A stretch of 64,000 nt of DNA from a virus (IMGVR_UViG_3300038345_000103:1-64000), one strand, 5' to 3'; positions 1 to 47,237 are shown, counted from the stretch's first letter. The notes: a model not told the origin generated them from the sequence alone. Program-made: numbers and translations.

Positions 1-860
1 TGGGCACACGTATCCCGTCCACGCTTGTGAACGTATCGCCGGTAACCCGAAGTAGCACGTAACCCGTAAACCCGAGTTGTATGCCCGTACGCAAGCGGAC
101 GCATGCGACCTGCACCGAACCTTGACAAATACTATATGTGTGTGGCATCGTGCACCATGCAGGCACGAGCCGGACTCCACAAGGGTCAGCCATATCCCTG
201 ACATGCCGTCGTCGAAGTGTGGGTGTGTCATGGCATCGAGTCATACAGCGGTCATATGTGAACATTGGGCTGGACACCCGACAAGGGCGTAGCCGGACAT
301 GGTGCATATGCGATAGCCGAGCGGTGGACTGCACTGTTGACTATGTGTCGCAGGTGGTTGCCACGTGATACAGGCGGCGTAGTGTATCCCCACGAGGGTA
401 AGACAGGGTGCACGTAGTAGGCGTAGGTTGTATGGTAGAGAAGAACCTCCGGTGTGTAGGTATGCATATGGGTGATGGCGTAAAGCGGTAAAGGGTGTAT
501 TGGCAGATACGACGGCACGTAGGTGCCCTGAGATGGGTACGGGAACGAATTAAGTTGTGCTAGGCATGATATGAGGTCATGGTATGGGCGGTGAAACTCC
601 GCCATGCAATAAGCTATGATGCAGCGAACGGGGAGAGTGCGACCTTTCCCTATGACTGATGTCACGATAGGAGTATCCTATTCAGGTGGAAGTCCTGCCC
701 ACGGCGAACCCAAAGACGTAGGGGAGAAGTGGGGAATGAGGTCAACAGAGCAAAAAGCCCAAACGTGACCAATCGATAAATAAGTGGGAATAATATGCGT
801 CCAAGGACAGATTGTAATGGACGGCACGGCAGCAGGCAGAACACACGCCTGCTATTTTTA
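1..860 (+). ncRNA. Candidate large structured non-coding RNA (5' end may lie outside the window)
   Basis: About 50-58% GC in lines counted vs about 32% in a late line; no ORF with a convincing RBS; many short stems (514-527, 587-603, 631-650, 667-681, 683-697), two with T-loop-like loops; ends at a terminator. Confidence 0.5.
831..860 (+). terminator. Rho-independent terminator
   Basis: AGCAGGC/GCCTGCT 7-bp stem followed by ATTTTTAT. Confidence 0.7.
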
Positions 861-949
861 TGTCGTTTGTAAGGGGTATCCTTACTTAAGCAGTGGGTTC
901 AAGTCCCACCCTGTCCAATCGAAGTTATAACGGAAACGAGGTATAAATT

Positions 950-1129
950 ATGAACCGCACAATGAAAATGAAGAATGACAAGCGAAAGAAGTTGGAACAG
1001 CAGGCAAAGAAGCTAAAGTTCTATGACTTAGCGTCACACCGTTATTACGCAAGCGAACTGCCGGCAAGTGCCATGTGGTTCGGAAACGTAGATGCGACAC
1101 AATACGGAAAAATGTGGTGGGAGGTGTAA
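950..1129 (+). CDS. Small hypothetical protein (59 aa, not in the ORF track)
   Basis: ATG with GAGG upstream; MNRTMKMKNDKRKKLEQQ...WWEV; packs tightly against the next ORF. Confidence 0.6.
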   Translation: MNRTMKMKNDKRKKLEQQAKKLKFYDLASHRYYASELPASAMWFGNVDATQYGKMWWEV

Positions 1130-46977: not shown

Positions 46978-46983
46978 CGACTT

Positions 46984-47055
46984 AGCCCCTTCACCAAATG
47001 GCAAGGTACAGGATTTTGATTCCTGCATGTACTGGTTCGAATCCAGTAGGGGCTG
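46984..47055 (+). tRNA. trnQ: tRNA-Gln(TTG), CCA not encoded
   Basis: Acceptor AGCCCCT/AGGGGCT; D arm ACC/GGT; anticodon arm CAGGA-TTTTGAT-TCCTG; T arm ACTGG-TTCGAAT-CCAGT. Confidence 0.95.
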
Positions 47056-47237
47056 TGCAGATAACTAAGATATTGTTATCTACATCATAGTCAGTGAGAA
47101 ACAGACTATAAACAATTCTCGTCGTTACAACGGCACGAATATATATTGAGAGAGGGTGCTTGTAGATATATATTTTTGGAGAGGTTTCGAGAACCACCGT
47201 TATTCCTCTATAAAAAAAGCGGAACGAGGGGCATCCT

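Follow-up and report, generated by a model that had tools for sequence, protein, structure and literature searches.

A large structured RNA element with a pistol ribozyme head and a tRNA-like tail in SPbeta-like metagenomic phages

The locus and its relatives

The window, that is the whole stretch of 64,000 nucleotides that was analysed, covers the initial 64 kb of an IMG/VR phage fragment of 75 kb, and its base 1 coincides with the contig end. DNA of this phage is present in the sequencing runs SRR18765426 and SRR1725612. No credible ORF is found between positions 1 and 949, where the + strand frames do not exceed 76 aa and the two longest frames (137 and 111 aa) lie on the - strand, in line with a preliminary description of the sequence that had noted at least 860 nt devoid of any. 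The same region had been depicted as GC-rich in an AT-rich genome, and its G+C content indeed amounts to 0.50-0.57 over 1-800, compared with 0.38-0.48 further on and approximately 0.42 in the remainder of the genome, together with a strong excess of G over C. The non-coding element extends to approximately 917-920 and is followed by a short gene for a basic protein of 59 aa. The main parts of the locus are listed below, negative coordinates being positions upstream of the window as read from contig L185 (window base n corresponds to L185 base n+4051).

-63 to 14, + strand: two tandem hairpin modules, each made of GAUGUC, a covarying stem of 3-4 bp closing an AAUUGG loop, and GAAUGUAUC
1..14, + strand: 3' half of the second tandem module, severed by the contig start
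15..238, + strand: variable 5' region of lineage-specific length and sequence, largely absent or different in L002 and L190
239..802, + strand: conserved core, closed by helix 285-291/796-802, with nested helices 292-319/450-479
805..917, + strand: tRNA-like four-way junction, from covariation (alignment A4) and the MFE fold
950..1129, + strand: gene for the 59-aa basic protein, which always follows the RNA

Homologues of the element were found at the same position in intergenic regions of seven other metagenomic phage contigs (54-99.9% identity), between a gene of approximately 215 aa and the conserved 59-aa gene. The comparison set was composed of the loci anchored on the 59-aa gene (six full or nearly full copies and the partial L186) and of L002, as follows.

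L185: 99.9% identity to the window, full length
L184: 95% identity to the window, full length
L188: 77% identity to the window, full length
L187: 63% identity to the window, full length
L189: 63% identity to the window, cut at its 5' end
L190: 54% identity to the window, full length
L002: 54% identity to the window, carrier found through its 582-aa neighbour
L186: partial copy, seventh further locus found through the 59-aa anchor

The 59-aa gene was the key anchor in this search, its carriers being preceded by approximately 1.1 kb of non-coding DNA and by a gene of about 206-219 aa, all on one strand. The 582-aa protein encoded downstream has many relatives; among those with readable DNA, the L002 contig is the only one to carry a homologous non-coding stretch (582-aa protein 47% identical, non-coding blocks of 70-74% nucleotide identity), and the element is absent from L004, L005 and L006, three contigs anchored on that same neighbour. 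All family members were recovered by profile HMMs. Against 50,697 phage records, blastn of positions 1-950 gave no match, and tblastn gave no match for the 59-aa protein and one weak match for the 582-aa protein. Exact-block scans of IMG/VR with three conserved 15-19-mers returned chance matches only, and the matches listed for a metagenome scan with a 17-mer conserved in just two lineages were chance matches as well. A two-block pattern scan of GTDB gave a single match, in an Oryzibacter genome, which was set aside as due to chance; it was not recovered by nhmmer with the family profiles. Being tiny and restricted to uncultured large phages, the family is unlikely to be detected by standard surveys of intergenic regions.

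The 59-aa gene displays a third-codon-position excess (53/41/116, p = 8.5e-11). Its product, 61-81% identical at the amino acid level among carriers (76% between the window and L002), has no Pfam, PHROG or Atlas match and is represented by only 7 clusters in 5.8 billion proteins, all of them adjoining the RNA wherever the DNA is readable. On the other side of the element, the upstream gene (L185:3220-3855) always precedes the ribozyme described below in carriers, with 30-43% identity between its products, for which an all-helical model consisting of a long helical hairpin and a small helical domain was obtained (pLDDT 83), with no Pfam, PHROG or Atlas match and no significant PDB or viral structural match. 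An assignment of this product to 'sigma-70 region 4' (two rows, E 0.4-0.6) was rejected as too weak. At the same place, contig L005, which is without the RNA, has a 220-aa gene with no detectable relation to the upstream gene of the carriers at E<1e-4, so that the module may be a three-part one made of protein, RNA and protein. Among carriers, the identity of the RNA (54-77%) and of the 59-aa protein is higher than that of the upstream protein or of the 582-aa protein, which implies a stronger constraint on the RNA and its small companion than on their neighbours.

To the left of the element, the opposite strand of relatives encodes structural and packaging functions (TerL, YonG-like, HU and an 830-aa protein); from there on, the order is an A+T-rich stretch of 1.1-1.9 kb that contains many promoter-like sites, the gene of approximately 215 aa and then the element. 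This gene order places the element at the head of the rightward early region, where the preliminary description had put it. In a phage with 98% identity to the window in the 582-aa protein (P0001 contig, ENA ERZ1029114; P0004 contig), the gene table shows tightly packed small genes at the expected site of the RNA, hence the cassette formed by the RNA and the 59-aa gene may be present or absent between near-identical phages.

Within the element, no reading frame is conserved in the homologues, and the 137-aa and 111-aa frames of the - strand are not kept. In comparisons with each relative, substitutions follow no codon periodicity (p = 0.64-0.88), and only a sixth or so of the indels separating the element from its relatives are divisible by three. 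In three relatives gene callers do place ORFs of 137-194 aa on the - strand of the element, as would be expected if these frames encoded proteins on the - strand, but the frames differ from one relative to another and the 137-aa product matches only itself among 5.8 billion proteins. Such coding is regarded as extremely improbable.

The conserved core and its compensatory changes

The core scores between 294 and 381 bits against all relatives in nhmmer comparisons and contains invariant blocks at 353-367, 434-449 and 778-788. In addition to the closing helix and to those nested directly inside it, a further nested long-range helix is formed by 614-617/784-787. Since the long-range helices (285-319 with 450-479 and 285-291 with 796-802) are compensatory, at least 285-802 constitutes one closed domain. 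The core has many covarying hairpins, three of which are described here.

368..433, + strand: long hairpin with helices 368-380/421-433 and 382-390/406-413; 19 pairs, 13 of them compensatory, 96-98% paired
582..607, + strand: T-loop-like hairpin with helix 582-591/599-607; 4 of 8 pairs covary, 98% paired
683..697, + strand: T-loop-like hairpin with loop UGRAAGN, 100% paired; CAGG/CCUG becomes CACG/CGUG in L002 and L190

The resemblance of two loops to T-loop motifs had been pointed out earlier and is preserved in the relatives: the U-G-N-R-A pattern is kept in six of seven for the loop UGAAACU of 582-607, the hairpin being deleted in L187, and in all seven for the loop UGGAAGU of 683-697. Among the stems that had been proposed at the same time, GGCGG/CCGCC (587-603), GGGAGAG/CTTTCCC (630-650) and CAGG/CCTG (683-697) carry compensatory changes in relatives. 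The stem GGCAC/GTGCC (514-527) is not conserved and has to be replaced by the overlapping hairpin 523-528/535-539, which is, and ATAGG/CCTAT (667-681) is located in a variable insert. A promoter-like site (GTGACC-18-AATAAT, window 765-794) might have served the tRNA-like module as a promoter of its own, but this idea was dropped because the bases of the site sit in covarying long-range helices.

Covariation was evaluated on 7 sequences, representing about 5-6 independent lineages, in alignments A2 and A3 for the element and A4 for the 3' domain. The consensus structure, obtained with RNAalifold from A3, comprises 163 pairs, 73 of which are changed on both sides. As this count is circular, five sequences served to train the structure, and L002 and L190 were withheld for testing. 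In these two, double changes kept pairing in 68 instances and broke it in 36, whereas controls with partners shifted by 1-3 columns had 17-29 kept against 33-52 broken. With training and test sets exchanged, 128 were kept and 73 broken, against approximately 45-64 and 61-101 in the slid controls. In long-range helices (more than 120 columns), pairing reaches 91.6% and compensatory changes occur in 16 of 33 pairs, versus 1-7 after sliding and 0/500 shuffles; in the helix of longest range, 285-291/796-802, the variation consists mostly of G-C/G-U changes. For the 3' domain, 94% of the cells are paired and 23 of 48 pairs are compensatory (1-5 when slid, 0/500 shuffles). Compensatory changes among the homologues are thus well above controls.

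The two ends of the element

In each relative whose 5' side is intact, a pistol ribozyme (RF02679) is present at the 5' edge of the element, directly past the stop codon of the upstream gene, with scores of 73.3 (L184), 66.6 (L187), 62.7 (L188), 56.1 (L185) and 40.7 bits (L190) for a gathering score of 34.5. The L002 copy matches with 28.9 bits over model positions 24-68, corresponding to the P2-P3 part only, and falls below the gathering score because of an insert after P1. The pseudoknot joining the P1 loop to the P2-P3 junction (A3 columns 21-27/59-65) is paired in 100% of cells, with 3 pairs changed on both sides (UCUAUGC/GCAUAGA, UCUGAGC/GCUCAGA and UCACGGC/GCCGUGA). Judged by its sequence, the 5' head of the family is a true pistol ribozyme, of which cleavage is predicted at a G|U dinucleotide (model positions 63-64, L185:3964/3965, equivalent to window position -87); the downstream product would then retain only five ribozyme nucleotides. 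The contig of the window itself gives no pistol match because it begins 87 nt downstream of the cut site, its base 1 being L185 base 4052. The 5' end is therefore cut off by the window, as had been suspected in the preliminary description, and the ribozyme can be presumed to belong to this phage through the 99.9% identical contig L185. In L185:3965-4000, the UGGUG that would be left after cleavage (GGUG being the 3' strand of P2) can pair with a CACC about 20 nt downstream, and by eye both sides are changed in L184 (GGUA/UACC) and L187 (GAGG/CCUC); this pairing could be a post-cleavage hairpin that releases the product.

The first tandem hairpin and the pistol both lie upstream of the window, at L185:3895-4051. 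Both modules have conserved flanks (GAUGUC and GAAUGUAUC), a conserved AAUUGG loop and covarying stems (A2/A3), with 7 of 11 pairs in copy 1 (columns 130-142/149-162) and 3 of 4 in copy 2 (columns 193-196/203-206). The palindromic AAUU core of these loops, broken in L002, is at most suggestive of homo-oligomerisation. Beyond the hairpins, A3 columns 215-500 consist mostly of gaps or of positions that cannot be aligned across lineages, with no conserved ORF.

At its opposite end, the element folds into the tRNA-like junction, composed of the following features.

805-810/911-916, + strand: acceptor-like stem, 5 of 6 pairs covarying
826-830/862-866, + strand: 'anticodon' stem of 5 bp, 2 of 5 pairs covarying
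831..861, + strand: intrinsic-terminator-like hairpin, stem 832-837/847-852, 9-nt loop, U run 853-861
869-885, + strand: variable-arm-like hairpin of 6 bp, 4 of 6 pairs covarying
893-909, + strand: T arm with loop UUCAAGU, 2 of 5 pairs covarying

Each helix of this domain is paired in 83-100% of cells, and the four-way junction is reproduced by the MFE fold of 799-921 (z = -2.98). Two registers were possible for the 'anticodon' stem, and covariation in L002 and L190 decided between them. As in a tRNA, an acceptor stem is combined with a T arm bearing a U-U-C-R-A T-loop: the T stem occurs as GUGGG/CCCAC, GCGGG/CCCGC and CUGGG/CCCAG, always paired (100%), around an invariant UUCRAGU loop. A D-like segment, UGUARUGGACG, is conserved as well, and A917 occupies the place of the discriminator base, CCA not being encoded. 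The domain departs from the cloverleaf by a terminator insert of approximately 31 nt in place of the anticodon loop and by 7 nt between the variable arm and the T stem. ARAGORN reports no tRNA at 805-917 in the window or at the corresponding place in five relatives, and the tRNA model (RF00005) has no match there at E<=10 in the window or in L185.

The preliminary description had let a terminator close the region at 831-860. The terminator itself is found in all 7 relatives, with a G+C-rich stem whose sequences differ yet remain complementary, followed by 5-11 U, and termination is predicted; the closure does not hold, as the element continues to approximately 917. A simple terminator scan missed 831-861 because its loop limit of 8 nt is exceeded by the 9-nt loop. 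The hairpin takes the position of the anticodon loop, inside the 5-bp stem, an arrangement with no counterpart among the known tRNA-like modules compared, and because it precedes the T arm many transcripts may never hold the complete tRNA-like fold. Past the terminator, L189 has an extra 6-bp hairpin within the U run (approximately 1010-1045), and L190 an extra 89-aa ORF (2210-2479) between the tRNA-like tail and its 57-aa gene.

The start codon of the 59-aa gene lies only about 33 nt past the tRNA-like end, which leaves no room for a promoter, and the downstream genes consequently need read-through. This gap and the conservation of the terminator would suit a giant cis-acting leader whose structure controls the embedded terminator by attenuation or antitermination and so sets transcription into the 59-aa and early genes, and the T-loop hairpins recall Stem I of T-boxes. 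At 1 kb, however, the RNA would be several times the size of any known leader, it matches neither T-box nor any other cis-regulatory Rfam family, and no switch is visible since the terminator hairpin and the tRNA-like fold are compatible. Moreover, release from the upstream message by the pistol would be in keeping with a product rather than a leader, and the leader interpretation is considered unlikely.

Several lines of evidence bear on the strand and on the molecule that is under selection. The fold energy of the element compared with shuffles gives z = -2.2 for the + strand and z = +0.1 for the - strand, and over all helices 135 cells hold G.U pairs versus 19 that hold A.C. This tolerance of G.U identifies the + strand as the one read and speaks against a role confined to the DNA, such as an origin, a pac site or an attP containing the 3' part of a tRNA gene. 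Such a role would be in keeping with the position of the element near a divergent junction, beside the terminase and structural module in relatives, and with the likeness between its T arm plus 3' acceptor strand and the tRNA fragment carried by many attP sites. However, the two acceptor strands covary, which shows a whole tRNA-like fold to be maintained rather than a 3' fragment; the + strand is the one on which ribozyme, T-loops and terminator are read, and the A+T-rich stretch upstream is a better candidate for an origin or pac site. A DNA-level role is hence judged highly improbable.

It could also be argued that the locus is a string of independent small elements placed side by side, namely a ribozyme, repeated hairpins, an RNA of medium size, a degenerate tRNA and a terminator. 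The 5' 240 nt do vary between lineages, approximately 100-190 nt of them missing in L002 and L190, and the tRNA-like module resembles a free-standing tRNA-Stop in another contig, L193. Opposing this, the compensatory long-range helices bind at least 285-802 into one domain, the order and spacing of the parts are the same in every member, and neither promoter nor terminator separates them. This arrangement is therefore thought quite unlikely.

Nature of the RNA and comparison with known families

Homologues, compensatory changes and the strand signal support the earlier proposal of a giant structured non-coding RNA, possibly of a new class. Most probably, positions 1-917 of the window represent the 3' nine-tenths of a structured non-coding RNA gene of approximately 0.95-1.0 kb, belonging to a rare family outside Rfam that is carried by SPbeta-like large metagenomic phages. 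The most likely kind of molecule is a stand-alone processed RNA of the GOLLD/ROOL type, though of a new and rare family. The RNA family is real, rare and undescribed, and is unrelated to GOLLD and ROOL despite the general kind that they share.

At gathering thresholds, Rfam has a sole match in the whole window, a distant tRNA-Gln, and GOLLD and ROOL have none in the whole window and 9 loci. The canonical tRNA-Gln (UUG; window 46983-47056) is also the only RNA gene reported by Rfam or ARAGORN in the window. Apart from Pistol, no family of Rfam 15 matches the element, including T-box, OLE, HEARO, raiA, group I and II introns, RNase P and tmRNA, and only chance-level matches (mir-379, ALIL, plastid UTR and YrlA, E of about 1) were returned. 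No match to GOLLD (RF02032) or ROOL (RF03087) appears even at E<=10 (window 1-1000; L185 3700-5100) or E<=5 (L187-L190), nor to OLE or group II introns at E<=10, in agreement with the preliminary description, which could assign the RNA to neither GOLLD nor ROOL.

GOLLD is a phage-encoded RNA of 800-1000 nt with an ornate multi-domain structure, whose 3' part is conserved and whose 5' part varies (RF02032; Weinberg et al. 2009; bioRxiv 10.1101/2024.12.08.627333), and cryo-EM revealed that it forms a homo-oligomeric nanocage (bioRxiv 10.1101/2024.12.08.627333). The RNA described here is likewise phage-borne, of similar size, ornate, and divided into a conserved 3' and a variable 5' part; it differs from GOLLD in that its tRNA partner is a non-decoding look-alike with a terminator replacing the anticodon loop, and in having a dedicated 59-aa gene as well as the upstream gene of approximately 215 aa. 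ROOL belongs to phages of gut and rumen Firmicutes and to their prophages, and frequently lies close to tRNAs (RF03087; Weinberg et al. 2017, PMC5737381). It too is large, structured and phage-borne, but it averages 581 nt (PMC5737381), its motifs differ and cmscan does not match it to the present RNA. The covalent link to a tRNA-like structure is, together with size, ornate fold and phage origin, the parallel with both families.

An association of pistol ribozymes with phages and Firmicutes has been described (Harris et al. 2015, PMC4604425), and the published descriptions consulted, including that one, assign them no biological role. Here the pistol is only the head, 70-85 nt long, of a 1-kb RNA, and its position suggests maturation of the 5' end. 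At the other extremity, an acceptor/T-arm mimic likewise ends a larger non-coding RNA in the vertebrate MALAT1/mascRNA. As with MALAT1/mascRNA and the bacterial Y RNA YrlA (RF02553), the terminal tRNA mimic could recruit RNase P, RNase Z or the CCA-adding enzyme; the weak match to YrlA (20.5 bits for a cut-off of 69) does not make the RNA a member of that family. We know of no tRNA-like 3' processing module with an intrinsic terminator in the anticodon position. The devices that form the ends of the element are unusually explicit.

A life cycle can be proposed from this anatomy. Transcription would proceed rightward from the A+T-rich divergent promoter region and yield a transcript shared with the upstream gene of approximately 215 aa, since no terminator is found to separate this gene from the element, within which the weak site at 765-794 is the only promoter-like one. 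Just past the upstream stop codon, the pistol would cut at the G|U and free an RNA with a 5'-hydroxyl and five ribozyme nucleotides still attached. Its body is expected to fold into the variable 5' part with the two AAUUGG-loop hairpins, followed by a core of approximately 560 nt with long-range helices and T-loop-type hairpins. The 3' end would be set by the intrinsic terminator (853-861) and protected by the hairpin that replaces the anticodon loop of the tRNA-like junction. Where transcription reads through, the acceptor/T-arm module would form in full and offer RNase P and RNase Z a substrate; their cuts would separate the RNA from the mRNA of the 59-aa gene and of the early genes behind it. 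The lack of an encoded CCA matches RNase Z substrates of Firmicutes. Depending on which end is used, the predicted mature length is approximately 890 nt (RNase P site), 946 nt (terminator) or 1,004 nt (tRNA-like end). What results would be a stable RNA that stands alone, broadly of one kind with GOLLD and ROOL, and that probably acts with a partner.

The small co-conserved basic protein suggests a ribonucleoprotein, and the 59-aa protein is the obvious candidate partner of the RNA; GOLLD and ROOL are not known to have one. As a tentative extension, rather doubtful as it stands, the RNA may be the core of a new phage RNP or of an RNA-only assembly, in which a 1-kb RNA released by the ribozyme with a 5'-hydroxyl and partnered with the 59-aa protein would contact tRNA-processing or translation factors of the host at an early stage of infection through its T-loop hairpins and the tRNA mimic at its end, acting for instance as a decoy that counters tRNA-directed defence or as a cage like that of GOLLD. 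If so, it would represent a giant RNA of a new functional class and not merely one more unexplained family.

To our knowledge, only a handful of bacterial and phage RNAs reach such size and structure (rRNAs, group II introns, GOLLD, ROOL, OLE and raiA), and we know of no phage-borne giant RNA with an established function. Ends that are apparently set by a self-cleaving ribozyme and a tRNA mimic would offer a concrete and testable maturation pathway, by which the pistol would gain a biological job in the 5' maturation of a giant RNA. Full-text literature searches gave no description of a module combining a pistol, a large RNA and a tRNA mimic.

A comparable arrangement was observed in contig L193 (IMGVR_UViG_3300031998_000064). 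At 1640-2655, approximately 950 nt of non-coding DNA past a terminated gene (fold z = -2.4, no Rfam match) are followed by a class-II-like tRNA of 93 nt, called tRNA-Stop (anticodon UUA) by ARAGORN. The 950-nt region gives no alignment to the RNA family described here by nhmmer, even with --max. The tRNA-Stop shares with the tRNA-like tail the D segment, the 6-bp variable arm, a UUAA linker and the T arm, and L193 may hold an analogous pair of large RNA and tRNA.
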